In this document: positions 1 to 62,317 of the stretch, piece after piece
Layout of the letters: each line of letters begins with the position of its first letter
How positions within the stretch are numbered: position 1 is the stretch's first letter
Assembly (NCBI GenBank): GCA_963693365.1
Contig: CAVNZM010000009.1
Location: 9,735,743-9,799,742, forward strand
Source: Amoebidium appalachense
Lineage: Eukaryota; Protista; Ichthyosporea
DNA: 64,000 nt
Reading direction: 5' to 3'
Program-made: the position numbers and the translations under genes
Notes under the pieces: model-generated
Told to the model about the DNA's origin: nothing
The model's database searches: none
What the model saw: the letters and a program-made list of their open reading frames with translations, nothing else

Positions 1-394
1 ATATTAGTAGAAAAGAAATACGATTATACACATGAAGACAAGGAGAGAAAGAAAAGAAAATAAGGAAGGAGAAAGAGGAAGGAAAAGAGAGCACAGATCA
101 ACAAACAAGATAGTAATAGCATAATTATAACCAGAGATATTTATGTACACACGAACATGTACACGTCTCTCCCTGAGTGGGTGGATCCGTGTACACACAT
201 ATAAATATTCTAATCGATATTACAACACACGATTAAAGCCGATACAACACGATTACAAGTATACAAGCATATCGGAGATCGATGCTACACTTTACATAAT
301 AGGAGTGTGGCATATACACTAAGCATATGAACTGAAACATAACACAAACTGAGAAGATCTTACCATATGTAAATACTACGTATTACAACACGAC

Positions 395-1009
395 GTGTGT
401 GAATGTTCCTGCCCCCATATTGGGCACCCCCCACCTCCCCCACAACCTATAACGTGCATTTTATGCTTGCCCCATATCCCCTTCACACCCATACCCAGTG
501 TTTTGGTACTGACATGATCCTCGCAAACAGTCCTTTTTTTCTCGTAAATATTGGTATATCTCGTGCCCGGTTTGTCCAAAACCAACGGGAACGGGTGCAA
601 AAGATGCCCCAGGGCATGGCCCTGCTTTTTGCAAAATGGTGTTGTCCCCCAATGAATCCCCACACATCTATTAACGGTCGGGTGGACCCCCCTTGCCCCC
701 ACTATATATATTTTACGCAAAAATCGACAATTTCGGCTATCTAAACAGGCTTACCCCGTTGTGTGTGAGTGTTCCTGCCCCAATATTCGGCACCCCACAC
801 ATCCCCTACAACCCTAAACGTGCATTTTATCCTTGTCCCACACCTCCTTCACACCCATACCCAGTGGTTTTGGTGCATACATGTGTAGCGCAAAAGCACC
901 CTTTTTCACGTAATTCTTGTTATATCACAGGCCCGGTGTGTCCAAAACCAACGGGAACGGGTGCAAAGGATGCCCCAGGGCATGGCCCTGCTTTGTGCAA
1001 AATGGTGTT
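395..1009. repeat. Tandem repeat of about 368 bp, about 1.7 diverged copies
   Basis: gtgtgtga(a/g)tgttcctgccc...tccaaaaccaacgggaacgggtgcaaa(a/g)gatgccccagggcatggccctgcttt(t/g)tgcaaaatggtgtt occurs at about 395-643 and about 763-1009, directly abutting the transposase exon donor at 1011. Confidence 0.85.
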
Positions 1010-1011
1010 AC

Positions 1012-4728
<3,717 letters not shown>

Positions 4729-5562
4729 TTTCCACTGCGTGGGTGCACATGTGTCCTGTGCAAGCAGTTAGTAACCCCTCGTCGACACGTCGGGTGGACG
4801 CTGGCAACTGGTGATGTCGCAAACAGATCATTGCCTGTGCCGATTGGCTCAAAATCATTGTTTTCGCGCCGTCGCACCCACGCCATGGCCATGGTAACAG
4901 TGGACTATGCATGGAGTATTGGCTATCATGAGGTATGTACCAATATTTATTATTTAATAAATGAAAGAATTTTTATAGTTAGGTATAATTTTTTTTTCAA
5001 TATAACATTATCTCCTGCTGAAGTTCATTGTTTGACCAATTATCACATATAGAGGTACGCCATGTGGGCGCCGTTTCATTGGCCGATGCAACCATTGTAC
5101 AGTGGTGTGCCTATTTTCATGCATAGTGATATAACAGTAGTGTTTACATCAGTATTTCCATAATTGAGTATAATAATTTTAATTTTACAGTTGCGCACAC
5201 GTTTTCTACTATTACTCCTTTGCAACTACGCCTATATAATATTTCAGTTATATTTTTGGGTCGCCTCAACGCGCGAAACGGATTGGTTGGGCATCACATG
5301 TTCGCGCGGGCGTTGTGTGCGGTACATGTGCTTCGCAATACACCATTTAACATGTGGTCACATTATTTACATGATTTTAATACTAATAATATTGTTTTTT
5401 ATTTACCCGAAACCTTTTTACTTTCTATGTTAATATTATTACATATTGTGTCATGTCACACACCCAAAGGCCTCTAAAACGAACCATATTCATTGGCGAT
5501 ACATCACGAAATGAAAATGGCCGGCGGAATTATGCGTGATAGTCGCGATCATTGGTTGGCGA

Positions 5563-5693: not shown

Positions 5694-8600
5694 ATGACCA
5701 AGGGCGTGGGCAGTAAGGCTTCGAGCAAGTCAACCACAAACAACGGTAGCCGCAAAAGCCCCCGAAAGGCCAGTCAGGGCAGTAGCAACGCCGGCAGCAA
5801 AGAGGGCAGTAAAGTGGTTGTGCCCGGTAAGGGTACTGGGGGTACTGGCCTGAAGGCACCGAAGCCACAGGTGAAGGTACGCAGCAAGGCTGAGCAGAAT
5901 GCCCAGCGCATCATGCAGGGCATTGACACGACACCTGCATCCTACCGGCCGCGCAAAAAAGGTGAGGGGTGCTTACTGTTAGTGTTTGTGACGTACTTGG
6001 GTGCCCATATAAGTAGCAGTGTGAAAGCTTTTCCTGTTCAGTTTACCGTTGTTGCCATGTAGTCGGCATAACACGTTTCGCTGGTCACGTAGAAGATGCG
6101 GGTCTCCCAGCAGCAAGCATTCTCGTTTGTGGTTACAAAGTTTGGTTCGTGCATCCACCATGGCAATACCCACGCATCCTCGAACTTGCCCGCCAAGGCA
6201 TCCCTGGATTGGCATGCGAGAATCCTTTGCAGCACAAGTGTTTTCTTCCCCTCTCTGTTTCGTTTCTCATATCACAGGGACTAGCCCCTGAGGTTGTTGT
6301 TCAGGGCCCAGGAGACCTTATTCAAACAACACCGCTTGCACTGCACTATGGGTTTCAGTGCGGGCCAAACGTATCGTTTGCGGTGAACACTGCCACAAAG
6401 AAGTGGTTAAACCGCTTGGGAGAATACGAGGCGTGTAGCTGCTGGGAGCATTTCATGCCCGACGTCCCAAAGATGATTCGTGCGTTTCACTCAGTTCAAC
6501 AGCACAATTTGCCCGTTGCTTGTGGTGCATTCCCCCCCCCCCCCCCCCCCCCCCGTCCCGCCCGCACCAGCGCAACCACCTAGTGATAGGGTATTACGGC
6601 ATGAAAAGTTTACGTTTTGACCTATAGTGTACACGCTGTGCACCACCGCAACCACTTAGTCATACCGTATTACGACATGAAAAGTTTAGGGGTCGACCCA
6701 TAGTGTACACTGTGCTTCAAGTTATATTCAGTTTTTGTTTTGTACACTGTGCGTGTATATGTGTCCTTGCAGGTCATTTACAGTCCCGACTTATGCGATG
6801 ATGGTGTGTGATTGGTGAATCTTTGTCTGTTTTTGCGTGCAATGTTTCATAAGCAACCCCTCACCCTCACAACATAGATCCTCCTCCTGAGCCGGACTTC
6901 GGCAGCAACAGTTCGGAGAGCGACTATGCGCCCGGGGGAAGCGAGTCGGAGGAGTCGGAGGAGTCTGAGGAGACGACCCCCAAGGGCGACAACAAGAAGT
7001 CCCGCCCCAAGAAGCAGGGCCCGCCGGCGGACGATGCGGTCCTCAGCGACCCCCTGAGGATGACCTATTACAGGGTCATCCACTCCGAAAGGTATGTGTG
7101 TGTGTTTGTTATGTGAATCATGTTGTTGTTATGTATAATATGGTGTTGGTAATGTGTTTTGTGTTAACAATGTGTGTGCTTGTTATGTGAATCATGTTTG
7201 TGTTATGCCAATATGGTGTTGGTATTGTGTTTTGTGTTAACACTGTATTACTCTGCCGGCATTTGGTATGGTATGGTTTGGTGAGGTAGTGCCCCCCTGT
7301 ATTGTCAAGTTGGGCTGTCCTTTTTTTTTTTGGCCTCATACACATACACACAGCTCTTGTTACTCTTCTGTCAAGGGATTAGCATATGTCTAGTTTAGTT
7401 AGGTTGGGAGCTTCTTAGAAATCCGTATATTAGTTTGCTTGTTTTGACTTTTGTTTATGTTCGCTTGCTGCTCTTTTATACTCCTTTTCTTTCCCCCCTG
7501 CCCCCCCCCCCCCTCCCCCCCCCCAAAAAAAACAAAAAACAAAAAACAAAAACAAAAAAACACACACACACACACACACACACACCCACCCCACCACCTC
7601 TCACCACCAACATTCACCCACATCAAACCCCCTAATGCGAAATCTAATAACAATATACCGAACCAGCATACATACATGCACGTGTGGATGGACACACGAT
7701 CACAAAACATTTCTGGAAACAAAATGTAACCATTAAAACCATGAATTTACCACAGATTCGAGTTTCTGCCTGCCGACAAGCGGTTCTCAACCATGAAGGG
7801 TATCCCCGACGAGGAGATGCGCCTGGCCCTCAAGGCCCGCGGCATCGTCATCGACGAGGCCGGCAACCGCAAGACTGGTGCAAGCGGTGGGAAGGCCAGC
7901 ACCGGCTCGGCCAAGCGCGGGGGGGCAACGTCAGACGACGAAGCTCTCACCGGTCCAAACCGTCGACAAACTGGTATGTAAATTGTTGTAACACAAGAGT
8001 TTACTTACTGAGAATTTGTTGAAGCCTTGTGGTTCATAAAAGTCAACATACATCATGCCGACCTCTTAGGAATCCTCGTAATGTCCGTGCGGTCCCTGGC
8101 AATAGATCCTTATATGATATCATCTCGAGTATTTTCTGACATTCCATGAATGTCTTAATTGGGTTGACGACATCTTATGAATCCTCGTAATATCTGTACG
8201 ATCCCTCCAATAGATCCTTATATGACATCGTCTCGAGTATTTTTTGACATTCCAATAATATCTTAACTGGGTCAGCGACATTAAATTCATCATATACATT
8301 AATCGTATAATATCGAAGGTGCCTTGTCTTGTTTTGTGTTAACACACCATCACCCCATGCATCCAAGGGGAAATTGTGTGTACCCTGTGTTGGATAACGG
8401 CAGTAAGCACACAACATACGGTGTGCGACAAACTTACACCAATATGATTTGCCCTATGCAGTTCGAATTCACCGAGGGGCTGTCCAAGTCCCATCCCATC
8501 TTTCAAGTGATGGCGATGAAGTTCCCGTTCTCCAACGAGGGCCAGAGCAACATCCCCGTGTGCAACGCGTTCCTGGAGTGCATCAACCTGACGAACCGGA

Positions 8601-21672: not shown

Positions 21673-21718
<46 letters not shown>

Positions 21719-23402: not shown

Positions 23403-23432
23403 CACCCCCCCCCCCCCCCCCCCCCCCCCCAG

Positions 23433-32434: not shown

Positions 32435-32500
<66 letters not shown>

Positions 32501-39430: not shown

Positions 39431-40827
39431 GGGTGGACCAGGAGGGGGCCCAGAGGGCCACGGCGGCTGCGATGGCCAGGAGTTCGATGACGGAAGAACC
39501 GAGTTTACCCTCATGAGCATAGAGGGCTTGGGTGGAGGGGGACCAGGGCATGAAGAACCATTGGTCGAGCCAGTGGCCACCTAGACCCACCGATCCGGCA
39601 GCATCAGTGGCCAGGGTGGTGTATGTGGGGGGTGTGATGAGGTGCACCCCATTCCATGATGTGAGGAACTGGTGCCATTCGGCTATGTCGGCCCGGGCGG
39701 CAGCAGTCAGTCGTATGTGGTGGTGGCCGGCAAGGTGTGGGTGGGTCCGGAGAAGGGCCCATAGGCGCTGGGAGAAGGCCCTCCCGGGGGGGAACCAGCT
39801 GGGCACACCAGGTGAGTTTGCCGAGGAGGGACTGGAGGTCCCGAATGGTGATGGTGGGCTTTGGGTGGGAAGTGAGGTCGAGTAGGTCCGAGAGCTTGGA
39901 AGCCGGGATTCGTGCCTCCATGGCGATGGAGTCGAATTCGATACCGATGAAGACGACACGGGTAGCCGGGCCCTGCATCTTGTCTTCGGAGATGGCAATG
40001 TGCAGCTCTCGGCAGAGTTGCAGGAAGGTGGATAGGTGACGTTGGCACTGCTCTTGTGTGGGGGCGACTATAATCCAGTCGTCTACGTAGTGGCGGATGA
40101 GGGTAATACCGTGCTGGTGTGCCAGCCACTGTAGGGTGGCCGCGATCCGTTCCCAGATGGCTGGGCTAGATTTCAGGCCGAAGGGCAGTCTGGTTTCAAC
40201 GTAAAAATGCCCTTGCCATTTGAATGCCATTAAGTGGTGGTCTTCCGGTCGGATGGGCATGTGCCGGAAGGCAGCCTGCACATCTGCCACGGCCATGTAG
40301 CAGCCGGGGCCTGCGTCGAGAATGAGTTGGGTGACATCCCGGGCGCGAATGTACTGAAGTTCGTCGGGGTAGGTGATGCTGTCATTGACACTGCTACCCC
40401 GGGGCCAGGAGAGGTGGTGGATTCGACGGTACTTGGGGGGGTTCCCTTTCTTGGTAACGGCGCCGATGGGGGAGGAACGGTGGACGGGAAATTCGTCAAA
40501 GAATTGGGCCGGGGAGAGGGGGCCGCGCAGGTGGCCGAGGGCGACTTCTTTGGCAATATCCACCGTGATAGCGGCAGCTGCCTCCGGGGTGGTGGGTAGG
40601 TTGGGGCCCACCCGAGAGGTGGAGGGGCCGCGATAGCCGATGTCGACGCCGAATTCGACATCGTGGAGGAGTTGTGCGGCGAATGGTTGGTCCGGGTAGG
40701 AGGCCAGCAGTTCCCGGAGGCGGGAGGTGTCAATGTGGTGCTGGGGCAGCGGGCGGGCCTCCGGGTCTGAGCCTCGGGGAAGGGGGTGGTTAGCAAGGGT
40801 GGTGTACCCTTGGGGAGATCCCGGCAG

Positions 40828-40875
<48 letters not shown>

Positions 40876-42819: not shown

Positions 42820-43530
42820 TCGCGTGCCAGCAGGTATTACTAATTCTGAATCAAGATTTCGATTTTCTACTTCGATCATGATTGTTTTATCAGCCGCCAC
42901 TTTACTATATGAAGGACTCACAAATGGAAGTAACCTAGCTGCCGGAACAAAGACACCTATATCTGCCACGACAGCAAATTGGTCTAAGTTGACACGGACG
43001 AATGCACGACTGTGGGGAGGTACACAAATTTCGCTGACAGTGTGTGCAGTACTTTGATACCCCTCCGTACCCGTGTGCAAACGTACACTACCACCCTTCT
43101 TCAAATGCAACTTATTAGATTCTTCATCTAACAATTTAACATGTGCCTTTGAAAATGGACGGCCTAAAATCATACTCTGACCCATGTTTGCACAAACAGC
43201 AAACGTGACAAATAATGTGTGGGAACCAATGGTACATGGGAGAGTGACCCGGCCCACCACATTCAACGATGCATCAGGATTGGCAGTCTTCACACCACTC
43301 ACTAAGTTATTTGAAAACATTGTAACACGTGCACCCATCTTCATTAAATTACAAATAACTTTTTCATGCACACAATTAATGTTTGCACCACCATCTAAAA
43401 GAATTTGAACATCACCCAATACCACAGGAACATATAACCGTGCTTCTGGCTGAATTAAAGATGCAAACACTTCCTGTAACACAGAAATTTCCACTTCACT
43501 ACTTTCCACACTAGTCTCTATCACCGACAC
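42820..43530 (-). CDS. Gypsy aspartic protease and downstream beta-rich domain
   Basis: ILLDGGANINCV active-site motif and ILGRPF. It joins ...IPAGTR|LGYIEG at 34528 once Ngaro copy 4 is removed. Confidence 0.88.
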
Positions 43531-43876
43531 AGAAATATTTGAAGGGGGGGAGGGGGGGAGGGGGGGGTGGGAGGGGGCGGGGGAAGGGGAAAAGGGGGGG
43601 GACGGGAGGAAGGGGGGGGTGGGGGGTGTGGGGAAAGGGGGGAAAGGGGGGAACGGGGGGAAGACTTAGCTTCATGCTGATTCTCAACGAGAGAGGGGGT
43701 AAATTGCACCACAGCAGTTTTAACTGACTGTTTTACGGCACCAGGCCGTGAGTGATTTATTGTCTTATTTACTTTACAACAGTATCTGTATAACAAGACA
43801 CGTTGATTTCAGACATTTCACTATCACTGCACATAGCCTCAACTGCAATATACTCTACCCCACTCTCAGCGCCCCG

Positions 43877-45322
43877 TCAACGCCGACGCTCGGCCATAAG
43901 TTTAGCCGACGCCTGCTGAGCATGATCTTTCCACCTAATACCTTCGGGGGCTGAGGGAAAGGTCTTAGGCAATTTTCGGTTGGGACAATCCCGTTTCTGA
44001 TGCCCTATCCCAGTACAATGGAAACAAACTCGTTCTGAAATAGGCACGACTGGTCTCTCACTACCCTGTTGGCCACCGTGCTTGCCGTTTTTCTGATAGG
44101 GAGCCGGGCGACGGGGTTGACGGTCATTTTTGGCCTTACCACCGGCAGCCTGGAAGGCAGCCACCTGAGCCGATAAGCTAGCTATCTGAGCCTGCAGGGC
44201 AGCAATCTCCGGAGCACCAATACCACTACAGTTGTTACCTGGGGTGGAAACACTATTGACCTGCGCTTTCTTGGCCGCCTGCCGACTAGCGAAACGACCC
44301 TCCAGCTTGTTAATAATTTTCGACTGAGCCTCATCAAGCTTGCTATTTGCCTGAGCTATTTCCCACAACTGCGCATCGGCCTCAAACGTATTCCTGTATA
44401 AACTACGTTGCATTTGACCGCTGACGTCGGTGTTCAAACCAGCTAACTCCAGCAGACGGCGAAACGTGTTGGTGTGTGCCGTCACTTGGCCACCAATACT
44501 GGCAGCCGTGGCATCCGACGTGGGAGTGAAACGGAGGGCCCGGATATGTGTCTCATATGATTCACGCCGAATGTTGGTCAGCCAGTAGTTCTCGATGAAA
44601 CGCAGCAGCCACTCAGGCGCCGTCAATTCGACTTCGACCTGCAGAATCTCACCCTTGCCCTTGTGCATAGGGCGAGTCGTCTTCAGTGGTGTCCGAGAGG
44701 CCAGGTGAAGAAGAGAATCCTCCGAGCGCACCTCGCCGTCAATGCCGAGGGCACGAACCGGCACCGTCTTGTTGTCGTTTTCAGGATCCATGTAGTCGTC
44801 AAGGAGGGTAGCCATCTCCAACACATGAGGATCACCACTTGCCCGGTTCACACTCTGCAGAATCATAACTTGCCACTGGGCCAGGGGAGTGTCGGGGGAC
44901 AGCTTGGCGATGCGATCGATGAGACGGTACCATTCAAACACGTTATCAGCCTTGGAGAGCTGAGGAATCTTAAGCTTCTCCATCATAGCCGCAGCCGCAG
45001 CACACACTTCAGGAACCTGAAAAGCCTTGGCCGCAGGGGCGTCGTAGAACACTTCATCCATCACAATGGGATCTTGCCACTCCATCAAACTGGGGGGCAG
45101 AGCGTCGAGAAACTCCGGGTCTATTTCATCCTGCGGGTCCATAACTTGGCCGCGCCACTGGGTGAACTTGCCGACGGTGACATCCTTGAGCTTGCCGAGG
45201 GGGCCAAAAACAAGAGCTTGGGCGAAGGTTGCACTCAGCCCCGCGACCGGCGAAAAGGGGGGTTCCGGCTCCATGTTGGGGGCGAAAGCAACAGCCGAGA
45301 CGGAAGTTTTGCAATATAGCAA
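43877..45322 (-). CDS. Gypsy gag
   Basis: 481-aa ORF with the C-terminal zinc knuckle CFHCTGIGHQKRDC, upstream of the protease. First ATG at about 45274. Confidence 0.88.
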   Translation of the reverse strand: MLYCKTSVSAVAFAPNMEPEPPFSPVAGLSATFAQALVFGPLGKLKDVTVGKFTQWRGQVMDPQDEIDPEFLDALPPSLMEWQDPIVMDEVFYDAPAAKAFQVPEVCAAAAAMMEKLKIPQLSKADNVFEWYRLIDRIAKLSPDTPLAQWQVMILQSVNRASGDPHVLEMATLLDDYMDPENDNKTVPVRALGIDGEVRSEDSLLHLASRTPLKTTRPMHKGKGEILQVEVELTAPEWLLRFIENYWLTNIRRESYETHIRALRFTPTSDATAASIGGQVTAHTNTFRRLLELAGLNTDVSGQMQRSLYRNTFEADAQLWEIAQANSKLDEAQSKIINKLEGRFASRQAAKKAQVNSVSTPGNNCSGIGAPEIAALQAQIASLSAQVAAFQAAGGKAKNDRQPRRPAPYQKNGKHGGQQGSERPVVPISERVCFHCTGIGHQKRDCPNRKLPKTFPSAPEGIRWKDHAQQASAKLMAERRR

Positions 45323-47099
45323 TTGGATTGGTGTAGCTTGTAAAGTATCCTCACGGACACTTCAGTGTAAAATGTATGTGTATGAGTGTAAACGGGGTTC
45401 ACTCTGAACTGGATTTCAGAGGATCGATGCGTGCGTTTATATACGGATGGTCGACCCGGACAAGATTACTTGACCAATCACACAACTCCCTAGCCGACCA
45501 ATCATATTACAGATTAGTACAGGGCTAGTAATTACTGTGTGTGACTACTTGGTCTCTTGCCGGTTCTAACACTCATATATAATTTTTACTGCTGCATGAC
45601 TTATGACTTACACAGCCCCGAAATATACTCCAAATAAACAGATACCAGTACTTTTCCTGTTTGTGACTTTGGTTACCAGTTACCTTTCGGAGTGCTGTCT
45701 CTCTCACATGTGTAACTGCAGGTTTACAACGACCACTCATTGCAGCTGGACTTTACCGGGATGCCCTCGACATGACTGGTCGAATATGAGACTCCCCAAT
45801 CACTCACAACCTGCTTGTTAGTTATTCGTTCTCTATGGCCGCAGCATTTAATGTTCCAATCAACACAGAAGAGGCCATAAGTGTCCACTCACGCGAGTCT
45901 CACCGTAGTTCTTTTCCAAGTAACCGAACATATGTAATTGTATTCGATCATCCGATTGGAAAAGCAGATATCACATTTATGATTGGCTCATTCGTCAGCA
46001 AACGCCGACATCTGACTGGATGAGCCGGCACCGACGAAATGTAAACAAAGCAAATAGATCTGAATAGATCTGAATCGATTGATTGACACGAATGCTCGCC
46101 GCGGAGACATAACACCAACCTCCTTGGCAGCCATCTTATGTTTGATGGGCACCGTATAAGTTGCATTGGTTTCGTATTTTTCCAGCGCTTTTGCAAGACG
46201 TTTCCCCGTAAAGTAGAATCTTGTGGGAAAAGAACACACGTGTGGGTGTCAAAACAACGTTTTGAAAATGAGTGTGTGGTGTGCCTTGCGTGTGTGCATA
46301 TACATCGATTGTGAGTGTTTCTTGAGGTGTTGAAATGGTTAAATATACAACAGAAAGGTAAGAACATGTGCATGCCTAGATTGTGAGCACATTTGACAGT
46401 TGTCCTTTTTTCTTGAAGCAAACACTGATACAGTTACTATTTATCAAGAATCCATAATATAGACGGAATGAAATGACACCAGATGCACCCTTTCTCCAAA
46501 CTGCTTCTTGTCTCTCGCCTACTTGCCCTTCTCTTTTTGCCTTTCTCTCTCTCTCTCTCTCGTGCCTCCCCCCCCCCCCCCCCCCCCTTCCCCACCTCAT
46601 CCCTCCTTTCCCTACCTTTCTCGTTCTCATTCTCTCTCTCTCTTCCCTATTCCCCTGTCCCTATCCGACCTCATCTCTCCCATATACCCCCCCCCCCCCC
46701 TCCCCTCCCCCCTCTCCCTCATTTCCCCTCACCCCCCCCCCCCTCCCCCACACCTGCTCCCCTCTCCCCCCCCCCCCCCCCCCCCACGCTGCCTTCACCC
46801 TGTCCACACCTTTGCGAGAGGGCCCCTGCACACATTCACACAGGGACACGCACAGGCAAACTTGTATAAGCACACACATGCACATGCGCATGTGCACAAC
46901 ACATGTGCACGTTCCTTGCATAATTGGAACACAGACCCCAAGACATAACACATGCGCGCAAACATCCATCAATGCACATATACAAACACAAATATTCCGA
47001 ACGTGTGGCAAAACACACACACACACAGGTAAGAGGTCATCTGCCCCCCAAGCATTTAGGGTCTCCCCTTCCCCTCTGCCCTCCCCCCTCCCCCCGCCT

Positions 47100-48906: not shown

Positions 48907-49132
48907 CAGACCCACAGGGTCTTGCCTCCATACTTTATTTACCTTAACAGGACAAAGAGCCGGTACCCACCTATGGGTGCTAAACATGCACATGATGGTT
49001 CGTGTGCTATAAAAGCAACACAGAAACGAAACACGGAAACAACAGCAGCCATAGGACAAAGAGCCCCAGACCCACAGGGTCTTGCCTCCATACTTTATTT
49101 ACCATAACAGGACAAAGAGCCGGTACCCACCT
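48907..49132. repeat. 66-bp direct repeat, two copies
   Basis: ccagacccacagggtcttgcctccatactttatttacc(t/a)taacaggacaaagagccggtacccacct at about 48907 and about 49067. Confidence 0.85.
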
Positions 49133-50352
49133 CATCAGCAAAGGCCACCCACCCATCCATTCGGTATCATTCGGGCATCATGGATATTAGAATGATAGTA
49201 CCCATCCACGAACCCACCCTTCATCCAACAATATATCAGTCTGATACTCTTTTTGTTAAATCCTAATATCCGGTTATTTTAAGATATTAGAATGATATCC
49301 ATGTCTAGATATCATTCTGATATTGGAATAGCCCCCGAAAAAGCCCGAAAAGCCCCCGAAAAAAGGCATTGTTCTACTTGTTGCTCTATCCTTTGGCCAT
49401 CCCGCTATGTATCATTCTGATAACATAATAGATATTGGAATGATACATACCCTCAAATGCTCTACGTTTTCAGATAGGGGTAAACATATCTGAATGAGAC
49501 TTGAATAGTACATTACAAAGTACAAAAAGTGCCCTCGTTGGTCATGCACGGTTATCCAAATGATATCATAATGATATCATTGCAAGAACGGGAGGTGTAT
49601 TATAATATCTTTGTATGCCCTATTATGGTATTGGTATGATAGAAGAAAATGAAATTATCTTCCTTTCCTAATATCAGAATGGTCTCATTCTAATACCGTG
49701 AATGATATCCAAATGATATCTATTGTAGAAAAGGGGGTGTATTATAATATCTTTGAATGCCCTATTATGGTATTGGTATGATAGAGGAAAATGCAACGAA
49801 ATTCCTTTCCTAATATCATATTGGTGTCATTCTAATATCGTGAATTCCAAAACCTCATATCATAATAGCACTATTCCAATATCTTAAAATCGTGGAACAT
49901 TTAAATCTGTACCCTATTATAGTATCATAATTGAGAGACATGTATATCATTATGGTCACCTTTGAGTGTCGTTGTGGGCATCATAATGGTCACTTAAAAT
50001 ATATCATTCGTGTACCATAATGGTACCATTTTATTGATTCGTTCCGTCGTCGACGTCCCCCCCCCCCTCCCCCCCCCCCCCCCCCCCCCCGGTCGATCTG
50101 CTATTAGCACTAAACTGTATTCAGACTTAGAAAACAAAAAAAGAAATTCTAAGTAAATCTCAAAAAAAACAAAAAAAAATTTTTTTCTAAGTAAATCTCA
50201 AAAAAATTTCTAAGTCTCGCTCAAAGAGAACTACGTATCATGATGTTTTTCAAAAGTTCTAAGACATACGCCCAGCATGTGTTAATACCGTCACATTTTA
50301 ACCTTCCAAACAACCATAATAAAACATAACAATATACTAACATTTTTGTTAG

Positions 50353-50897
50353 TTAGTATACTAAATTATTATTTCTTTTTCTTGTGTTCAAATTCTTGGG
50401 GGGGGTCTTTATGGGTGATTGTGCGGGCCGCTTATTGGCGACGCGCGACGCCTCGTCGCTGCTGCTGCCGCCGCTCTCACGCTCCTTGTCCCCCGCACCG
50501 CCATCCACCGACATGTTGCCGTCCAACAGCTTGGGGTCCACCACCTTCTCGACGATGACGTTGGTGTCGGGGATGGGGTCGGCCTCCTCATGACGATGTC
50601 TCCGTCGTTCTTGTCCTTGTTGCCGGCAGCGTCATCGTTGATCTCCTCGGCCTCCTGGACCTTAGCCTCGGCCTCCTTGGCCTTTGCCTCGGCCTCCTTT
50701 AAGTTAGCCTCGGCCTCCTTTAAGTTAGCCTCGGCCTCCTTGGCCTTAGCCTTACGGACGCGCTCGTACTGCTTGATGTACTGTTGGGGCAACAGAATGA
50801 CGTGTTAGTCTTACTTGTGTGCTGGTGAACAATATTGCCAAAATACAGGCAGAATATTCCGTGCTGGTTCATAAGGGCTTCACTTAACATTGATTTG

Positions 50898-50942: not shown

Positions 50943-53900
50943 TGGTGGTGGTGGTGGTGTGTGTGTGTGAGTGTGTGTTGTGGGGGCGGGGGGGGGGGGG
51001 GGGGGGGGGAGGGCATGGGTGTGCTACATGGCATTAGAGTGAGTGGGAAAAACTGTGTCGGTCGAGGCACTTTCACAAGAAATAAAATGGGGTTTTTTGG
51101 GGTGCTGGTAGGGTGTCTGTGTATCTGTGTGTGACTTGTGTATGCAGCAGAGGGTTGGATATACGGAAATGAAGACTTCAGAACACAAGCCAGAAACCCA
51201 AAAAAAGGGGCAGGAATTAAACGTGGGTGTGCATGTGTGTGTGGAGGGGGTGAGGGGGGGGGGGGGGGGGGAAAGACAAAACATACCGCCTTGATGGTTT
51301 TAGGGTGTGCCCCACCAGCGTAGTTCGGTTCATTGACCCTGTACACAGCTTGGGGCCAGTTGGTGTTGTCCTTGCACTGGTGCATCTGGATGCACTTCAA
51401 ACACTCCTCGAGAAGGTTCACGCAGACACTGAAAAATTGCGTCCAGCCCTTGGCAATGTCCTGAAGGGGGAACCAAGGATACGCGGGTTAGAGTACGTGT
51501 GGTGCTCTGTGGTAGACAGGCGTCTGTAATGGTGGGCAGCTCTAGGAGTGGGTACAGGACAAAACTCAAATTATATTTAAAAGTACGCACATAGTTTGCA
51601 TAACAAGGGGGAGGGTGGGGGGGGGGGGGGGGAGGGTGGGGGGGGGGGGGGGGGGGGGGGGACCTGAAGGGGAGGTGACAGTGCTCATCTGTTATATAAA
51701 TCAGATGGCTAAACCTAACAAGTTTCCTGTTTTATAAATGCTCATCCAAAATATCGGTTGATGGCCCCCTATATCGTTGAAACACTGGCAAAGCATATGC
51801 TCATCCATGACCCATCTGGATGGCTCCCTAGATACTCGTAGCAAGGATAGAGAAGGCCTTACAATCAAAAACATCATTGTACATTCGAATTCGAATCTCG
51901 GAGGACTACCTACACTCATCATGGATGCATGTATGATATCTATAAGGATATCTATATTAGATAACAAAATATATTTAGATATCTGAATGATATCTCCAAA
52001 TATATACACAAAAGGACCTGTTGGATATACAAATTCTGCTATGTTTGTTTCGAGACCGTGCAAAACGGTGAAGGGATGAACGGGGTCTGAGGAGATGAAC
52101 GGGGGGAGGGGGGGGGGGGGGGGGGGGGGATAAAGAGAAAGTTGTGGAGGGAGGTGGCTCGTGCACTTCCATAGAAAGGCTTGATGTTGAACCAGGTAGG
52201 GGTGGTGGTGGGGATGGGTGTTGTGTTGGAAGGTTGGCGCGGGGGGGGGGGGGGGGGGGGGGGGAGGTACATACACGTGAACTTTTGCCGCCAATCACTG
52301 CCCTGATGCCCTTCATGCTCAGGGAGCTGAACATGCGGTGGAATGAGGCATACCCATATGGGTCGCCAGTCACTGGATCGGCGCTGTACTTGCGGCCACA
52401 GGGAGCGCCATCCAAGAGAACCTCATCGAGCAGCGAATTCCACAGACGGCCACGCACATCGGCCGTGGGTACCCACGTCATCAACTGCAAGGGACAGGAA
52501 AAGAATGTGGGCGGGGAGTGAAAAGGTTAATGATCAACCAAACACCTGGTATTTGTGCTAAATGGGAAGGGGTACACTATCGGCAGAAATGACCTCGAGA
52601 GATTGATCACTGAGCAAGTAGAGAGTAGTGCATGGGAGAAGAGGGTTGGTTGGGAGTGAGGGGGGGAGGGGGAAGGGGGGGGGGGGGGGGGGGGGGACAC
52701 CAAAGCACAAATAATACAAAACCGAAAATACACTAGTCCTTTATCCAAAAGTTGAGTGTAATAGGGTAGGGTAAACGATGAAGGGATGAATGGGGTGTGA
52801 GATGGGATGACCGGGGGGGGGGGGGGGGGGGGGGGGTTAGAATGCGTTACAGAGTACGAAGTACTACACATACACGATGGAAAACGCAATGCGATGAATG
52901 GGGGGGGGGGGGGGGGGGGGTTCCAGAGAAAGTTGTGCAGGGAGGTGTCGCGTGCACTTGCATAGAAACAGCTTGTGTGCCTGTGTGTGTGTGTTTTTGG
53001 GGGGGGGGGGGGGGGAGACTTGCATCCAAGTTGTCAGTGCCTGGGACCACATAGTACTTGCTCAAGAAGGTGCGAATGTGCCCATGCAGCGTGGACCTGA
53101 CCGTGGTGAGGCCAGTGCGGATCTGGGTGACCTGCTTCTTCTGGTCAGACTTGCGAGCTGCGTTGTGCAGAGCATTGCACCATGCCTCCTTGGCCGCCGC
53201 GGGGATGCGGTCGAAGTTGACGGGGTCGATCAGCTGGGTGGTGGAAAGGACAGCGGCGGCCAAATCGCGGTCGTTCTCGTCGTTGATGTGCGGCGTCTCG
53301 AGCAGCATGCGCTGCCATAAAACGTCGGTCTTGGTTCTGGACATGACGTTGTTGGCCTGAAGGAAACAACAACATGTGAACAAAGGCCGTTGCGTTCCAA
53401 AATACCAAGCAATCAAAACGGATGAGCTATTGTGTTTTTAGCGCTTGCGTTGATTGATTGGAGAAAAACTAGCATCTAAATAGCACTGTACCCTGGTCCA
53501 TTTATTCAATTGAACATACCATCATGATGCGCGGCAAACATTATATCTTTTGTGGCAATTAATTACTTCCTCAAGTGTGTATACAAATAATGAGCTTCAG
53601 ATCAAGAAAAAAAATTCTAAAACATAGAAAATGGTTACAAACGAGTGTACAGGAGGTAATGGATAGGGTGTGCGTGTGCGTCTGTGTGCTTTCGTGTGTT
53701 GGTGTGTGTATGCTGTTTGAGGTTGGGCCTTTTTGTTTGTTTTCTCCTTTTGTTTCCGATAGGGGAAAGGGAGATACGGGGGAAGGGAGGGGGGGGGGGG
53801 GGGGAGACATACACACCACTCTAAGCCCTGCTTGAAGGACATGGGGCTGTTCTCCTGGCTGTTGCTGCCATCTTCTTGGGGGTCCTCCTCGTCGATGGAG

Positions 53901-56019
53901 TCCGGGCTGGCAGAACCAACGGTGCGGGGAGCCGGCGGTGTTTTCTGCTTCACACTGGGAGTCGCCGCTTGCTCTGCCCGGTCGGCATCGGTGAGCGGGA
54001 AATCCATATGCAAAGGATTAAGCGCAAACCGCATCTCGGCGCGGCTGACGGTCTTCAGGAACTGAATCTGGCGGCGGAGGCTGGCGCGGGGAAGTCTTTG
54101 AGGGACCACGGTAACAAGGTAGGACAGTTCGACTGGGTCCCGCGGCAGGGCGTCCTGTATTTTCTTGTCGTTCAGGTCCGCGTCGAGGTCCATGTTTCCG
54201 AGCTGTTCCTCCACGGCCTCTTCCTCTTGACCGTCAGCCCACTCGTCGTCTGGATCTTGAATTTGTACTGCACACAAGGGTGAGTGATCATTTCGGGCAT
54301 AAATTTGGATGTTGGCAAGACAGGGACGGGGGCTAATTGGGAAGATGTTTCATTGCATGATATGCAAGTGCACATTATGATAACCTTTTTGTATAAATAT
54401 ACATATAAAGAACCATTAGAATGATATCTAAAATATCACTAAAGATATCATTATGTGCAACCAAAAGTTCAACCATACCATACAACTCTCGTGCAACTAA
54501 AGATATCCACACCTATAACATACATCTCTCAAACACCAACTGTGCAGCGTAATACCGAACACCAACAAGAAACAGTTGAAAGGAAACACCCTCACACAAG
54601 CACCAAATAGACCATCTTTGTTAGAGGGGGGTGGGGGTAACAACCAGCAACCGGAATATTTAACTGTCCCACTGAGCCGAAAGCAGCAACCATCTTTTCG
54701 ACGCTGGGTACAAAATGCGGGCGACAGTCACACACAGGATACAGTGAAAGCTGGTCTATCCATCTAAACGTGGCTGTGTTCACTGCCAAAGCGATGTTGG
54801 GACCCATCTGAAAACCATAGTGCAGTGAACCGGGCGTGGTCTGTACCAAGTCACCAGCCCGCTGCACAATAATAACTGGAGCCATTCCAATTGAAGCCAG
54901 AAAGAGAGGTGAACGAGGAATGTAATTCTTGTGTTGCAAAGGGTTGGAACACGATTGCGGAATCTCCTTCACTGCAAGCGCGAGCAGACGTTTGTACTGC
55001 GACGGAGGATGAATAAACCATATCTTCAGTCCCCACAAAAGTAGGCTGGCAGAGGCTAGAGCAGCATCCTCGATGTGTGCACCAAATAAAGTCAACCCCA
55101 TAAGTGTCAACTGCATATACAACATGGCTTCGTTTATGCCAGGCATTGCGTCTCCGTAATGATTTGCCCCCAGCGGTGTGAAGTCAGCAATGGTGGTCAC
55201 GTAAAAAAAACGACTGTCGTTGATCTTTGTGGTGTCTACCTCAACGTCTGAGGCATACACCCCTCCCTTGCCCACTAGGTTTTCTTGGTAAAAGTGTGCT
55301 ATCTCATCACCACTCATGTCTGCTAGACCACCCCTTTCCTTAGGAACGGCGGGGATATCGGACAGCTTCACGCTTACATGCTTCCTATCAATTTCACACC
55401 AACTGTCTGAAACACTTGCAACTGTCTGCCTAACTGCCTGTTTCCTGATTTCCCTCGCACAAAATAGTTTGATTGCTTCCCCAAAAGGGATAGGGGACCC
55501 GAAACCGCTGAGTAAACAGCCCCCGTCACCACGCGCCTCGGCCTTGTGCAAGGCACTTAGTGCTTGCAAAGCTCTACGTTTATCCATGTGTGTGCTCGCC
55601 TAATACCAAACATAAACCATTAAACGACAGAGTGGAAATGACGTTGGGTTTAGGATTTTAAGAGCTTATATACCATGCAGAGCACAACGGTCAGAACAAC
55701 ACAAAGGTGAAGGTGAACACGTAAGACACCCACCTTTCTTGCGACCGTTAAGGATGCTGATGGCGAAAGGGGCGGTGTTCTTGGTGATGCTCGAGAGCAT
55801 CACAGTAGCAGCGCCAGCAGGGTCCGTGCGGCTACGTCCCGTCCTCGACCCCGCAGGGTTAGGGGCCGGCTGCGTCCCCCCGTTCTTGCCGCTGCCGGCC
55901 CCTTTTGGGTTGGGCTTCGAGGGGAGATTATACGTATCATCGTTGCTATCGTCGCTGGCTACTGGTTGTTCCTTCTGACGATGCTTGAGGCCCTGACTGC
56001 GTGGTTTCCGTTGCAGCAT
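50353..56019 (-). CDS. Transposon accessory gene B, unknown function, homologous to 5694-13968
   Basis: Exons about 56019-55734, 54255-53813, 53356-53024 (GC donor), 52484-52275, 51460-51287 and 50780-50353 (frameshift about 50590). Motifs YVVPGTDNLD, PCGRKYSADPVTGDPYG and YAGGAHP; the C-terminus has KEAEA coiled-coil heptads. Confidence 0.75.
54592..55587 (-). CDS. KDM4-like JmjC histone lysine demethylase, intronless 331-aa ORF nested in intron 1 of accessory gene B
   Basis: GVYASDV, PGINEAMLY, FGAHIED (HxE), LKIWF, CSNPLQHK, VQRAGDLVQTTPGSLHYGF, PNIALAVNTATFRW and VCDC align in order with KDM4 motifs YGADV, GVNTPYLY, WHTED, PKSWY, C..FLRHK, QEAGEF...YHAGF, NCAESTNFA..RW and CSC. Confidence 0.92.
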   Translation of the reverse strand: MDKRRALQALSALHKAEARGDGGCLLSGFGSPIPFGEAIKLFCAREIRKQAVRQTVASVSDSWCEIDRKHVSVKLSDIPAVPKERGGLADMSGDEIAHFYQENLVGKGGVYASDVEVDTTKINDSRFFYVTTIADFTPLGANHYGDAMPGINEAMLYMQLTLMGLTLFGAHIEDAALASASLLLWGLKIWFIHPPSQYKRLLALAVKEIPQSCSNPLQHKNYIPRSPLFLASIGMAPVIIVQRAGDLVQTTPGSLHYGFQMGPNIALAVNTATFRWIDQLSLYPVCDCRPHFVPSVEKMVAAFGSVGQLNIPVAGCYPHPPLTKMVYLVLV

Positions 56020-56138
56020 AATGTCGGCGGGTTTGTGCAAGAAAAACACCTTACAGGCATCAGACTGATACTTTTCTGCGGGTGTTTGAGTGGTTTTGGG
56101 TGCGAAAAATTGATGCATACCGATGTCGTACAATGATT

Positions 56139-56150
56139 TTTCATTGGTCC
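56139..56150 (-). promoter_or_regulatory. Conserved CCAAT-box motif GGACCAATGAAA upstream of accessory/JmjC gene B
   Basis: Identical to 5563-5574, with the same 120-nt spacing to the ATG (56019). Confidence 0.6.
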
Positions 56151-57214: not shown

Positions 57215-57369
57215 AATATATATATATATATTTATATTTATATATGTATATAAATATATATGTACCGTACTAATACAATCAGTGTACACCCTATTTACAC
57301 GGCGCTGAGATATGGTTCACCCTGTGTTTGGTTGTGCTATGTACCTGTTCTTTTGCAAGCACCCAGAAA

Positions 57370-60300
57370 ATGCCGCAAATTCCGTGTCCAGAATGCATTT
57401 TTTCTTTCAAAAACAGAGCTGGTATGGAGAGCCACCGTGTATTTACACATAAAAGGACAAGAGAAGAGCTTGAGCGGGAAAACCAGATCCGAACACGTGG
57501 TGATGCACGCACCCAGCAGCATGAGCATGAGCCAGAGGGTGATGATCATGATGGTGGGTGGGAGGACCTACCAGAGCTACCCGCGGACCCTGAGGACCCT
57601 CCCGTCGTAGAATCAATACCCCCAGAATGCACACACCATCTCATGTTCCTCAGGGACGGGGATCAGTATCATGCTCTGAAGGACAAGTTAATCCAAAAGC
57701 AAAAGCAACAGTATGTAGTGCCAACCAGGGACATGATTCATTCTTGGGGCAAGTGAACGTCCCAGAGGGACAAAAAGCATACATTAAAGATGTCAGTGAG
57801 TTCATCGAACATCTACGGGAGGACCCCGACTACCCGTTCGCCAACAAGGCCGAGGTAGGGATTTGCTTTGGTGCAATAATGATAGAAGAATGAGCCTTTA
57901 TATACAACTACAACTGTAAAGTACCTTTCTAGTACTCTGGTGGATATCGTTCTGATATACATATGGATATGCAACAGTGCACCGTCCTATTACCATTTTT
58001 TGTCATGCATATGGTGCTGATTATAAATGACGCCTCTGATCCCTGCAGGCAGATATGGCCCACTACTTCCATGAAAACAAGACGTCCATTGCGGCCGCAG
58101 ACCGCCTTCTGGGACTCATGAGGGAGCATGCCCATGGTGATCTTGCCCAAGACACGTTTCCCAAGAAGGTCGAACACCTGCACAAGAAGATGGACACCAT
58201 CCCCAGTCTGGTAAGCGTGTAGATCTGGAAGGGGAAAAAAAAAATGCCCGAAACCCTAGATCCAAAGATTGCTGGTTACCGTTGGTTGGTTTGTTCGCGC
58301 CCGCGCCCACATCTAGATCTGGATCCGATTCAACAAATTCAATTGGAGATACGATTGGCTGTATGGTTGGAATCTGCATACCTGCATAGATGCAGGCAAA
58401 CACAGCTAACAAATTTCGCTTGCCCGAAATCATGCCACCTACACGCACCACAAGTGCGTACACGGTTGCACATATCTATCCCCTATCCTCACGCAAATAC
58501 ACTACCCACACATGACAACCACACCGAAACATTACAGGCGTTTTCTCGCATGGAGGTGGACCTGCACCGCCCTGGCATCAACAAGGCAGTTGTCATGTAC
58601 AGAGATATTGGCGACTGCATCCAGCGTGTGCTCCTTCACCCCACGCTTGAAAAGGATGGCTCCATTACCTATAAGACAGAGTTTCCGGTTGATGATTTGG
58701 GCCGTAGGGTATACACAGACCACATGGATGGTGACTGGGCAATAAGGGAGGAGCTGAAGATACCAGTTGGGGGCACCCTCTGGTCGATTATTGTGTACTC
58801 TGACCAGACCCAGCTCACGTCGTTTGCAGGGAAGAAAGCGTATCCTGTCTACATCTGTGGTGGTAACATTAACAAGAACGTCAGATCAGGCGACTGGAGC
58901 AAGTCAGTAGTCGGTCAAGTAACAATATTATTTCAATGATTATTTTTTCCCCATAATTTTCTGTTTTTTGGCCGGGGCAAATGCACACATGCATGGATCT
59001 AGAGACGGGCATGGACTAGTTTAGGGCGCCGCGTTTGCGTCTGTGGCTTGTGTAAGATAATAACCCGGGCTTTGCAGGCTTCCAATTGCGTACATCCCCG
59101 AGCTGGATATCTCGAATGGAAAGAAGGTTTCAGAGGCAGTCAAGTCCAAAGCGCGACTGCAACTGTTTCATGAGATCATCGACCGAGTCATCGGCGAACC
59201 CCTGCGTGCAATGAACGCGAAAGGGCGGTGGTTTTACTGCGGGAGCGACAGGATGTGGCGGCTTATGTTCCCACGTGTATCGTACTACGTTACGGACTGG
59301 CCTGAGGGGCGCAAGGTGACATGTACCAGGCAAGTATTTAAATATATCATTATGGTATTAGTCGTATATACATGTTTTAGGTTTTGGATATCATTCATGT
59401 ACCTTGAAACCCAAGCAACAGTATCATAATGATATCATTCACGTACATTGAAATCCACTTTTTTTTGCCATTGACACACACGTATACATACTAACCTGTT
59501 TTTGTTCCTTGACAGGTCCGGGGTTGCCACTGCCAGCCCATGTCATAAATGCTGGGAATCATGCGAGACACTGTGCGAGGTGTGGAACCCAAAACCACTG
59601 AAGACAGAGGAGGCAGTCAGTGCCATCTATTCTAAGGTGGCTGACCTGCGTTCAGACGGGCAATCTGCTCTCGCGAGCGAGTTGCTGAAACAAGCCTCGC
59701 TTCAGGACTTCACAGCGAATGCCGGCCCGGAACTACCCGGTTTCTGGTGGCTGTGGGGCGTTCCCATTGAACGCATGCACCAGGCAGAGAGTGGTGTGTT
59801 TAAGCAAATGATCATCGAATACAAACAGTATGTTAAACACATCTGTGAAGTCGTTGGTGATGGGCCCGGGTCTGCTGCTGACAACCAAGCCAAGGAAATC
59901 ATTCGGGAGTTTGATCGCCGGTTCAATGAATTGCCACGGTTCCACGGGCTTAGGCACTTCACCGGCACCGTGTCTGATCTGACGTTCCTTCGTGCTAACG
60001 AGCACAGAGATCTAATGAAGGTACTAGTAGCCCTCACCCCCCCCCTCCCCCTCCCCCCCCCCCCATCTACCTCCCCTCCCCCCCCCCTCTCTCAGTCCTC
60101 TCTCAGTCCCCCCCCCCCATCTACCTCCCCCCCCCCCCATCTACCTCCCCCCCCCCCCCCTCTCTCAGTCCCCCCCCCCCCATCTACCTCCCCCCCCCCC
60201 TCTCTCAGTCCCCCCCCCCTCCCCCCAACCCACCCGAGGCTCCTCCTTGCTTACTGCTTGCTCTACAAAAAACCTAAATGAAAAAACATTTCAGCACATG

Positions 60301-61213
60301 AACATTGTCTTCGTTTGACCATTGAACCACACACACAGGGCATCCCTTTCGTCGTCCGTGGCCTGCTTCCCGATGAGGCTGCCAACAGGAAAGCAGAGAA
60401 GGTGTTTGTGGGATGGAATGATTGGTACACCACTGTGACGAAGGACACGTTTACTGAGGAGGATCTGGAAGAGATGACTGCTAAATATCGGAGGTACAAT
60501 ATACCCCCACTGAACCATACACCCCCACCCATGTAACGGTATACTAGTACACCCCCACACCCACTCATTTCTGTATCATCACTTACTAAGAGGGTCACGA
60601 AAATTGGAATGTGCTTTATGATATGTCACAGTGTGTACACAGTCTCATCAGCGTGGGACAGGTTTGCTCAGGACGCGTACGATTGCTTCAAGGAATCTAC
60701 CAAGAACAACCTTCGCACAGCCAAGCTTCATGCTGGTGACCACTACGCCGATGACTACCGTCTATTTGGTCCCCTTGAGACGGCTGAGAGCTGGGAAAGG
60801 GCCCACAAGTACTACTGCAAACTCCCGTACCGTATGACCAACAAGAACTCCACATTCATCGTTCAGGTCAGTGTGAAGGGGGGTTTCACTGGCGGTTGGG
60901 GGGGGGGGGGAGGGGGGAAGGGGGGGGGGAAGGGGGGGGGGGGTTCTTTCTCGATTTCTTTCCCTTTCCTAATGTGGTAACTTGGTAGGTGGCAACAAAG
61001 GTTCGTCGATGGGATGCCATGGACCTGCGTCGGGCATTGCTGCAAGGTCTGCATGCAGAGATGGACAACCCACCACTTGACGTTCATGATGTACCACCTG
61101 ACGTGAATGAGGCTGTTCTCGAGGAGGTGCTGGCAGGACTCGAGAGGAGGAGGACGTGGCAGTACCCGAAGTACCTGATGATGCTGGACTGGAAGCGGCA
61201 GACGAGGAGGTGA
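57370..61213 (+). CDS. Plavaka-family transposase copy B, 8 exons, about 780 aa, one frameshift in exon 1
   Basis: Exons 57370-57854, 58049-58210, 58538-58902, 59078-59329 (GC donor), 59516-60020, 60339-60493, 60662-60866 and 60989-61213. N-terminal CPEC...H..FTH finger. Plavaka motifs IIVYSDQTQLTSFAGKKAYPVYICGGNI, QLFHEII, YVTDWPE...CHKC, ERMHQAESGVFK, FDRRFNELPRFHGLRHF and KLH...HYADDYRLFG...ESWERAHKYYCKLPYRMTNK. 1-nt deletion near 57725-57735. Confidence 0.9.
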
Positions 61214-61341
61214 CAGTTCTCATGTCAGGTAAGGGGGGGGGGGGGGGGGGGGGGGGTGTCACTGTGGAGGGGGAGAATGGGGGGCAGGGGCAGTTAGGAA
61301 GTTAACGGGGGGGGGGGGGGGGGGGGGGGTCATATCACCCG

Positions 61342-62275
61342 TCGATAAAAAAACACACACAAATGTGCATAAAATCACCCTGGGTGCACGGGTTCGACCC
61401 AGTTTTTTTGCCCTGCAAACAGGGGGCACGTGGGGGGTGTGTGTGTGAAGTTTGGTGCATGTACGGGCACTGGTCGGACGGGAGGGGGGTCCATCGGCCC
61501 AATTTTACAGTGATTTGTACATGAAAGCGCAGAATCAGTTATACACGAATGCAAATACACCTAACTCCTTCCAGAAACACAAGTAGCAAGAGTTAGGGGG
61601 CTCCCAAGTAACGTTTGGGGGTGGGGATGATGGTGCAGGGGTTTTTGGGGGGATAGGGCCATATGCCTGCCCATAAAATGAAGTCCCAGGGGGGGGTCTG
61701 AGTGTTTTAATAGGGGATATCGATAAAAACACACACAAATGTGCATAAAATCACTCTGGGTGCACGGTTTTCGACCCAGTTTTTTTGCCCTGCAAACAGG
61801 GGGCACGTGGGGGGGGGGGGTGTGAAGTTTGGTGCATGTACGGGCACTGGTCGGACGGGAGGGGGGTCCATCGGCCCGATTTTACAGTGATTTGTACATG
61901 ATAGCGCAGAATCAGATATACACGAATGCAAATACACCTAACTCCTTCCAGAAACACAAGTAGCAAGAGTTAGGGGGCTCCTAAGTAACGTTTGGGGGTG
62001 GGGATGATGGTGCAGGGGTGTTTGGCGGGATAGGGCCATATGCCTGCCCATAAAATGAAGTCCCAGGGGGGTCTGAGTGTTTTAATAGGGGATATCGATA
62101 AAAAAACACACAAATGTGCATAAAATTACTCTGGATGCACGGATTTCGACCCAGTTTTTTTTTTTTGCCCTGCAAACAGGGGGCACGTGGGGGGTGTGTG
62201 TGAGAAGTTTGGTGCATGTACGGGCACTGGTTGGACGGGAGGGGGGTCCATCGGCCGGATTTTATTGTAATTTCT
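61342..62275. repeat. Tandem repeat of about 377 bp, about 2.5 copies, just downstream of the transposase
   Basis: tcgataaaaa...acacacaaatgtgcataaaat starts at about 61342, 61720 and 62096, with near-identical units. Confidence 0.93.
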
Positions 62276-62317
62276 TCATGTGTGGTTGTGTGTGCGTGTG
62301 TGTGTGTGTGTGTGTGT

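Follow-up and report, generated by a model that had tools for sequence, protein, structure and literature searches.

Published work already covers transposon-encoded factors that erase DNA methylation (TET/JBP) and anti-silencers that bind DNA (VANC, TnpA). Among Plavaka (CMCT/EnSpm-like) transposons, fungal PlavakaB bears TET/JBP cargo (Kojima 2025, PMC12730594), and giant red-algal (Bostrychia) Plavaka elements carry PAG1-3 (10.1101/2025.02.11.637652); in the portions of these two sources considered here, the cargo comprises TET/JBP, SET/methylase and 2OG-oxygenase. For En/Spm (TnpA/TnpD) and VANDAL (VANC), an excerpt of a third source describes fused, alternatively spliced and separate-gene architectures, with TnpA and VANC acting as sequence-specific regulators and TnpA recruiting host DNA demethylases (10.64898/2026.08.24.746577). 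In Amoebidium, endogenized giant viruses hold multi-exon, KDM4-like genes with JmjC only, which were proposed to counter H3K9me3 silencing; the same source, in the portion considered, treats giant repeats flanked by Plavaka separately and does not assign JmjC to Plavaka (Sarre et al. 2024, PMC11244446).

The Plavaka element of Amoebidium appalachense described here has in common with the published elements, as excerpted, a PF18759 transposase with C(2)C and H(3-4)H motifs, as well as a 2-oxoglutarate oxygenase and a gene without assigned function as accessory genes, for which an anti-silencing role was proposed. It differs from them in that the enzyme is a KDM4-like JmjC protein encoded within an intron of the other accessory gene. 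Like the viral JmjC proteins of Amoebidium, this JmjC is a divergent, KDM4-like protein without PHD or Tudor on a mobile element; by the published description, the viral genes have several exons and sit within viral insertions, whereas the one studied here is intronless and lies in Plavaka. As in En/Spm and VANDAL, to the extent that these are described in the excerpt, a DNA transposon encodes an anti-silencing factor (here putative) beside its transposase. In contrast to those systems, the factor is the element's own putative histone demethylase and is nested in the accessory gene, not in the transposase. The term JmjC occurs 0 times in the main text of Kojima 2025 (PMC12730594), and no JmjC-bearing DNA transposon was found in the titles and abstract openings of a limited library. 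If a cut-and-paste transposon encodes a KDM4-like histone demethylase, the silencing arms race would reach H3K9 marks as well.

Two diverged Plavaka copies carry a JmjC region in a cargo intron

The window, i.e., the whole stretch of 64,000 nucleotides analyzed here, is eukaryotic and repeat-rich and holds two diverged copies (A and B) of one element. Each copy consists of a Plavaka transposase gene and a multi-exon cargo gene pointing away from the transposase. The cargo gene lies on the plus strand in copy A (5694-13969) and on the minus strand in copy B (56019 to about 50330), and the copies are linked by tblastx across the transposase, JmjC and three cargo exons.

194..4767, minus strand: pieces of the Plavaka transposase of copy A, with 61% identity to copy B in one exon
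57274..61230, plus strand: Plavaka transposase gene of copy B, in divergent orientation to the cargo, with CHKC and HAGDH motifs
56112..56150, minus strand: GGACCAATGA...ATGCATC motif upstream of cargo exon 1 in copy B, from alignment with copy A

In the copy B transposase, six exons between 58049 and 60866 are open, and the protein matches PF18759 at 71.7 and 35.8 bits (cut-off, 26.3); CHKC and HAGDH provide the C(2)C and H(3-4)H motifs that characterize Plavaka. The copy A piece scores 21.4 bits, below the same cut-off, yet it is 61% identical to its copy B counterpart. Plavaka termini (TGT..ACA or CATCA..TGATG with a 2- to 3-bp target duplication) were sought; no convincing terminal repeats surround copy B, and the left end of copy A may fall outside the window. 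The GGACCAATGA...ATGCATC motif aligns with a counterpart at 5563-5598 in copy A and is likely the main cargo promoter element.

In both diverged Plavaka copies, a KDM4-like JmjC region lies in intron 1 of the cargo gene, on the same strand. The sequence-only reading of this DNA had correctly placed JmjC as an intronless cassette between exons 1 and 2 in either copy.

Cargo transcripts join exon 1 to exon 2 across the JmjC region

5694..5961, plus strand: copy A cargo exon 1; RNA junction 5961|6878
6878..7091, plus strand: copy A exon 2; both flanking junctions in RNA contigs, with loose ends behind 7091 matching the exon 3 start
7756-7973, 8462-8791, 12365-12616, 13147-13320 and 13657-13969, plus strand: copy A exons 3-7; the phase of exons 3/4 does not close

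Sequence runs X1-X4 were used, of which X2-X4 stem from one sample of one study and were guessed to be RNA; X2 and X3 are taken as RNA because their contigs cross three GT-AG introns exactly. The contigs placed on copy A number 36 for X2, nine for X3, none for X4 and one for X1. They connect exon 1 to exon 2 at 5961|6878 (5959 to 6876, cut at +2), skipping 916 nt with GT..AG ends. The short side of this joint spans 195 letters in X2, with 1 other letter in 397, and 28 letters in X3. RNA contigs of a paralog that is approximately 93% alike likewise join exon 1 to exon 2 and skip JmjC. The earlier proposal that exon 1 can splice over the whole JmjC is thus borne out by an RNA junction in two paralogs. 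The exon 1 ends on which it was built (RKK G|gt, phase 1, at 5961 and 55734) check out, and the RNA contigs use exactly the copy A exon 2 start at 6878 noted there. Given the exon 1-exon 2 joint in RNA, a single constitutive exon 1-JmjC-exon 2 fusion is ruled out. Positions 4790-5689 and 6590-6859 of copy A have no cover by RNA contigs, and absence there was not counted as evidence.

Further downstream in copy A, exon 3 ends in phase 1 and exon 4 opens in phase 0 (intron 7974-8461); a 17-nt micro-exon candidate at 8404-8420 would restore the frame. Within intron 2, 7247-7460 is matched (roughly 90-95%) by high-depth RNA contigs, whose loose end agrees with a motif that recurs downstream of the copy B cargo gene (about 48950-49130, minus strand). 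These matches likely represent a small, highly transcribed repeat.

55734..56019, minus strand: copy B cargo exon 1; ATG at 56019, ends RKK G in phase 1, donor AAG|GTGGGT
54268..55733, minus strand: copy B intron 1 (1466 nt), containing JmjC; junction inferred from copy A RNA
53813..54267, minus strand: copy B exon 2, with 54268 rather than 54256 as the probable acceptor (splice-site score)
53024..53356, minus strand: copy B exon 3; core of the cargo domain, predicted helical; GC donor
52275..52484, minus strand: copy B exon 4; homology to copy A, open spliced frame
51287..51460, minus strand: copy B exon 5; homology to copy A, open spliced frame
50330..50780, minus strand: copy B last exon; frame appears shifted near 50590 (three-frame translation)

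For copy B, exon 2 had been proposed to start at 54255 with DP, as in copy A. The phase (1) held, and the exact acceptor did not: AAG ending at 54256 scores -5.9, whereas CAG ending at 54268, also in phase 1, scores +1.1, and the reference acceptors end in YAG in 18 of 18 cases. The scoring matrix comprises 19 donors and 18 acceptors, three of each RNA-supported and the others predicted, with one transposase donor (58919) probably misplaced. Exon 2 of copy B probably opens with VQIQDP, so that DP at the start in both copies is an incidental match and not a conserved junction. Since both acceptors are in phase 1, skipping from exon 1 to exon 2 is in frame in copy B either way, and the spliced cargo model without JmjC is open over 609 codons. 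Donor 53812 is joined to exon 3 by the loose end of an X2 RNA contig. RNA contigs provide no cover of copy B exon 1 or JmjC, and no RNA run was listed as containing copy B 53850-56100; neither absence was counted as evidence.

The X2 contig joining exons 2 and 3 of copy B (1724 nt) departs from exon 2 at 53917, and its 5' 478 letters have no match in the window; they may stem from a paralog, a chimeric transcript or another promoter. Two predicted GC-AG introns with GCAAGT donors occur at 53023 and 59330, and at one of these positions copy A has a GT donor instead.

Pfam returned no match to the cargo protein for eight of eight exons tested, and the AlphaFold model of the protein is unusable (mean pLDDT of 47.8). 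An atlas match to DUF6532 (0.93) has low recognition (1325) and covers 14% of members, and serves as a lead only.

The intronic frame encodes a divergent KDM4-like protein

54592..55587, minus strand: copy B KDM4-like JmjC ORF, 331 aa, own ATG at 55587; triad H171-E173-H256; Y111, K188, N270
6059..6583, plus strand: copy A JmjC remnant, which retains the metal triad and agrees with copy B at 85 of 153 aligned residues

The JmjC Pfam domain (PF02373) is recognized at 53.2 bits in copy B and 41.5 bits in copy A (cut-off, 24). As previously noted for copy B, the frame is a single ORF of 331 codons with its own ATG at 55587. The iron triad H-x-E/D...H is formed by H171, E173 and H256 in copy B and is present as HVED and LHYG in copy A. 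The best matches of solved structure are the catalytic domains of human KDM4B/A/C/D (E values of 6e-18 to 1e-14), with KDM4B matching residues 94-293 of the copy B protein at 6e-18. The H-x-E...H triad, a Tyr, a Lys and an Asn are common to this JmjC and human KDM4A-D. Residues Y132, N198 and K206 of KDM4A are 2-oxoglutarate ligands. In the alignment of the copy B protein with KDM4, the Tyr and Lys are kept, whereas the Asn equivalent to N198 is Ser, which counts against the explanation preferred below. In addition, JmjN, PHD and Tudor gave no Pfam match, JmjC being the only domain at an E value of ≤0.1, unlike in human KDM4A-D. The protein is therefore considered KDM4-like and not a KDM4 orthologue. 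It is predicted to remove H3K9/H3K36 methyl marks. Between copies A and B, pN and pS of JmjC equal 0.30 and 0.72, respectively. GC3 amounts to 0.47-0.48 for JmjC, 0.73-0.79 for the cargo exons and 0.47-0.67 for the transposase, placing JmjC at the low end of the transposase range.

A HMMER scan with JmjC yielded 1399 matches at an E value of ≤0.001, the best single-domain match being P0002 (520 aa, 38% identity, E value of 4e-39). In a tree of 62 of the 153 collected rows (the two window proteins, the first 45 matches and 15 more with the canonical motif), P0002 is sister to A+B with modest support (80/81). The A/B proteins form a long branch outside the rows that bear the canonical KDM4 motif; P0008 was dropped as a repeat artefact, and the long branches leave the placement unsure. 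In word-index protein searches, the copy B JmjC had no match among 7998 candidates, and P0002 was the sole match of the JmjC alignment among 7992. Pattern scans of IMG/VR, which are of low sensitivity, confirmed no viral relative in 54 and 3 stretches, nor did metagenome pattern scans confirm a relative in 96 and 85 stretches. With no confirmed relative in these low-sensitivity IMG/VR scans and the nearest solved structures being eukaryotic KDM4, the suggestion of a virus-derived JmjC finds no support. Pieces of run X1 are approximately 85% alike to JmjC of copy A (6187-6411) and copy B (54748-54884); further subfamilies thus exist.

Copy A lacks the N-terminal half of JmjC, and the nearest copy B acceptor is out of phase

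6058..6059, plus strand: site at which an RNA contig (X3 record 10) has 566 nt, the N-terminal half of JmjC, that the window is without

The 1057-nt X3 record 10 matches 5932-6058, continues with 566 letters absent from the window and resumes at 6059-6422. In X2, the loose end before 6059 reads Q-V-S ahead of V-V-G-I-T-R-F, the copy B equivalent being Q-L-T-L-M-G-L-T-L-F. When the 566 nt are restored, the distance from the donor to this codon is 663 nt in copy A versus 629 nt in copy B. In copy A of the window, 566 nt comprising the first half of JmjC have been deleted. Due to this deletion, the AG ending at 6062 is coding sequence (GTA GTC) brought beside intron sequence. The phase-1 acceptor at 6062, which had been thought to let exon 1 join JmjC in copy A, is a by-product of this event, and no joint from 5961 to 6063 is among those listed. 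In copy A with the 566 nt restored, the visible phase-1 AGs (6013, 6016 and 6019) run into TGA at 6022, and those at 6027 and 6041 are in other phases. The 566 missing letters could hold an in-frame acceptor. One JmjC RNA contig carries a 1-nt gap at 6238.

In copy B, the AG ending at 55600 is in phase 0, in agreement with the earlier remark that it is out of phase, and scores -7.4 as an acceptor. Run X1 contains a 97-99% version of copy B in which the stretch from 55600 to the ATG has no listed indel, and the phase mismatch is thus probably not an assembly error. Exon 1 spliced to 55600 would end GEHTHG-stop; this stop would overlap the start of JmjC (ATG-GA-TAA, 55579-55600), a spacing that resembles viral stop-restart sites. 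Direct read-through from exon 1 into JmjC was rejected in both copies: with the 566 nt restored the frame is offset in copy A, and copy B has stops at 55668 and 55602 and a 1-nt insertion in X1 at 55649.

JmjC is most likely a nested gene with a predicted internal promoter

RNA from JmjC was recovered only unspliced, in contigs that run unbroken through the 5' part of the intron and the JmjC start (X2 record 4, 478 nt; X3 record 10, 1057 nt). Upstream, these JmjC contigs take in the donor (5962) and 30 letters of exon 1, a single letter too few to count as bridging; this extent fits precursor or retained-intron RNA. None of the four joints listed for 45 RNA contigs enters or leaves JmjC, for one sample and a reference that is missing 566 nt of the target, and the proposed exon 1-JmjC product is therefore not supported for copies A and B. 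The C-run at 6524-6568 was skipped in contig matching, and a junction just past the JmjC stop could be missed. In X2, the contig depth is 83-126 for JmjC, 1939 for spliced contigs and 47.7 for an intron 2 piece; the corresponding X3 values are 8.3, 93 and 6.4. Relative to the spliced contigs, JmjC reaches 4-9% and intron 2 pieces reach 2.5-7%; contig depth is a poor measure of expression, and contigs cannot reveal transcript starts. As the depth of JmjC RNA is close to that of the ordinary intron 2, a JmjC-specific mRNA remains putative. X2 record 4 starts exactly at the first base of intron 1 (5962), where the spliced contig is unbroken; this start could be due to graph pruning, merged paralogs or excised-intron RNA.

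55636..55670, minus strand: copy B TATAAG and initiator-like TCATTT; predicted +1 at 55639
6008..6043, plus strand: copy A TATAAG and initiator-like TCAGTT; predicted +1 at 6040

Both introns contain these promoter-like pairs, predicted from the TATA and initiator consensus and spacing, with 32 nt (A) and 31 nt (B) between TATAAG and the initiator-like YCAKTT. The pattern TATAAG-N22-25-YCAKTT, which was fitted after both sites had been seen, matches the window twice (0.11 expected), each time in intron 1 of a copy. A looser TATA-initiator pattern has 11 matches in the window against 1.9 expected and occurs in two of two JmjC introns, 46 and 61 nt past the donor, compared to 2 of 17 other intron stretches; it also matches just upstream of a Gypsy gag ORF (45407-45443). 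In the expressed copy, the promoter-like stretch of copy A is unchanged (0 other letters over 5962-6058). As a prediction, the presence of the pair in each of the two introns suggests that JmjC has a promoter of its own, at variance with the previous suggestion that one promoter serves both arms; separate promoters had been named there as a finding that would refute the switch.

Given the TATAAG-initiator in both introns and the ATG of the copy B frame, JmjC most likely constitutes a nested gene equipped with a predicted intronic TATA-initiator promoter and a separate ATG, while the cargo mRNA splices over it. We give this explanation about an even chance. As expected for a nested gene, copy B has a complete ORF with its own start, and the intron is removed from the host mRNA, as the junction in copy A shows. 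Two upstream ATGs (55620 and 55613) between the predicted start and ATG 55587 in copy B count against it. As regards the retro-derived origin suggested earlier, no A-tail is visible after either JmjC stop. Under the nested-gene explanation, the cargo mRNA would splice exon 1 to exon 2 across JmjC, JmjC transcription would start at the predicted promoter within intron 1, and the protein would be made from its own ATG, presumably at a low or conditional level. The putative enzyme would strip H3K9/H3K36 methylation and help the element escape silencing, and the abundant cargo protein would perform a separate job. Intronic nesting would permit free expression of the cargo while holding a potentially genome-destabilizing enzyme low or conditional.

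A splice switch in intact family members is an unlikely alternative, in which exon 1 would splice in phase 1 into JmjC as a cassette exon. JmjC would then end the protein or, as a symmetric 1-1 exon spliced on to exon 2, give a demethylase-cargo fusion, copies A and B being decayed or derived. This idea draws on P0002, which, by protein sequence alone, appears to carry in one frame an exon 1-like low-complexity N-terminus, an intron-like stretch of approximately 43 aa and JmjC. Of its four tripeptides that fit a phase-1 GTAAGT/GTATGT donor (1.6 expected across the whole protein), three fall at the exon 1 end (136) and the JmjC end (497 and 499). The copy B AG at 55600 lies about where the inferred acceptor of P0002 falls, with a CA repeat between AG and ATG. 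However, exon 1-JmjC or JmjC-exon 2 joints are absent from those listed for the 45 RNA contigs. At the corresponding end of JmjC, a phase-1 GT occurs in copy A as well as in copy B, but these donors score at background (-2.4, 1.9 and -1.0 against a median of -1.6). A word-index search of 1760 proteins of 196-2000 aa gave no match to the cargo core, which is weak evidence against a fusion. Based on P0002, a fusion may exist elsewhere in the family. The broader notion that an H3K9 demethylase module alternated in evolution between an in-frame symmetric exon joined with the cargo protein (P0002 type) and a free nested gene with an intronic promoter (A/B type) strikes us as improbable; if true, splicing or promoter choice would allow the element to set the dose or the target of the heterochromatin eraser that it encodes.

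Two further explanations dispense with an internal promoter, and we consider each a long shot. A minor transcript from a single promoter might retain the 5' part of intron 1, with JmjC translated from its own ATG through leaky scanning or re-initiation downstream of the exon 1 frame; splicing to exon 2 may then follow from a donor immediately past the JmjC stop, at 6591 in copy A and 54589 in copy B. Consistent with this, X3 record 10 starts at 5932 and continues unspliced across intron sequence to JmjC, the first letter of X2 record 4 coincides with the donor, and, were copy B spliced to 55600, the exon 1 frame would end at a stop that overlaps the JmjC ATG. The donor-like sites past both stops score 5.0 and 4.4, above the 90th percentile of the background (3.9), but they were chosen after the fact. 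A frame of 110-120 codons precedes the JmjC ATG in retained-intron RNA, and an upstream frame of this length normally blocks re-initiation; the similar depth of JmjC and the ordinary intron 2 also argues against this explanation. That same depth favors the other one, in which these copies carry JmjC as a silent passenger, all of its RNA is unspliced precursor from the highly transcribed cargo and the promoter-like motif is unused. The 566-nt deletion in the window's copy A, the 1-nt gap in one paralog contig and the near-neutral changes listed between copy B and X1 JmjC (six nonsynonymous and three synonymous, with 11 further differences beyond those listed) point the same way. Against it stand the intact 331-codon ORF of copy B, the triad kept in A and B, pN far below pS and the equal placement of the motif in both copies, which indicate that selection acted on JmjC in the active lineages, although the present insertions may be dead.

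Other repeats of the window

Tandem arrays of a 183-nt repeat lie in a copy A transposase intron (2056-3713) and past the copy A cargo gene (18808-19718), and a tandem repeat of approximately 376 nt follows the copy B transposase (61342-62280). At least four near-identical DIRS-like retroelements (9179-12350, 19715-25189, 26047-30730 and 34520-42821) were assigned by reverse transcriptase and tyrosine recombinase, as judged from ORF translations. One of them sits in intron 4 of the copy A cargo gene, and a Copia-like element (about 36300-39400) interrupts another. A Gypsy-like element, present in pieces at 30651-34561 and 42796-45443, is split by a nested insertion.
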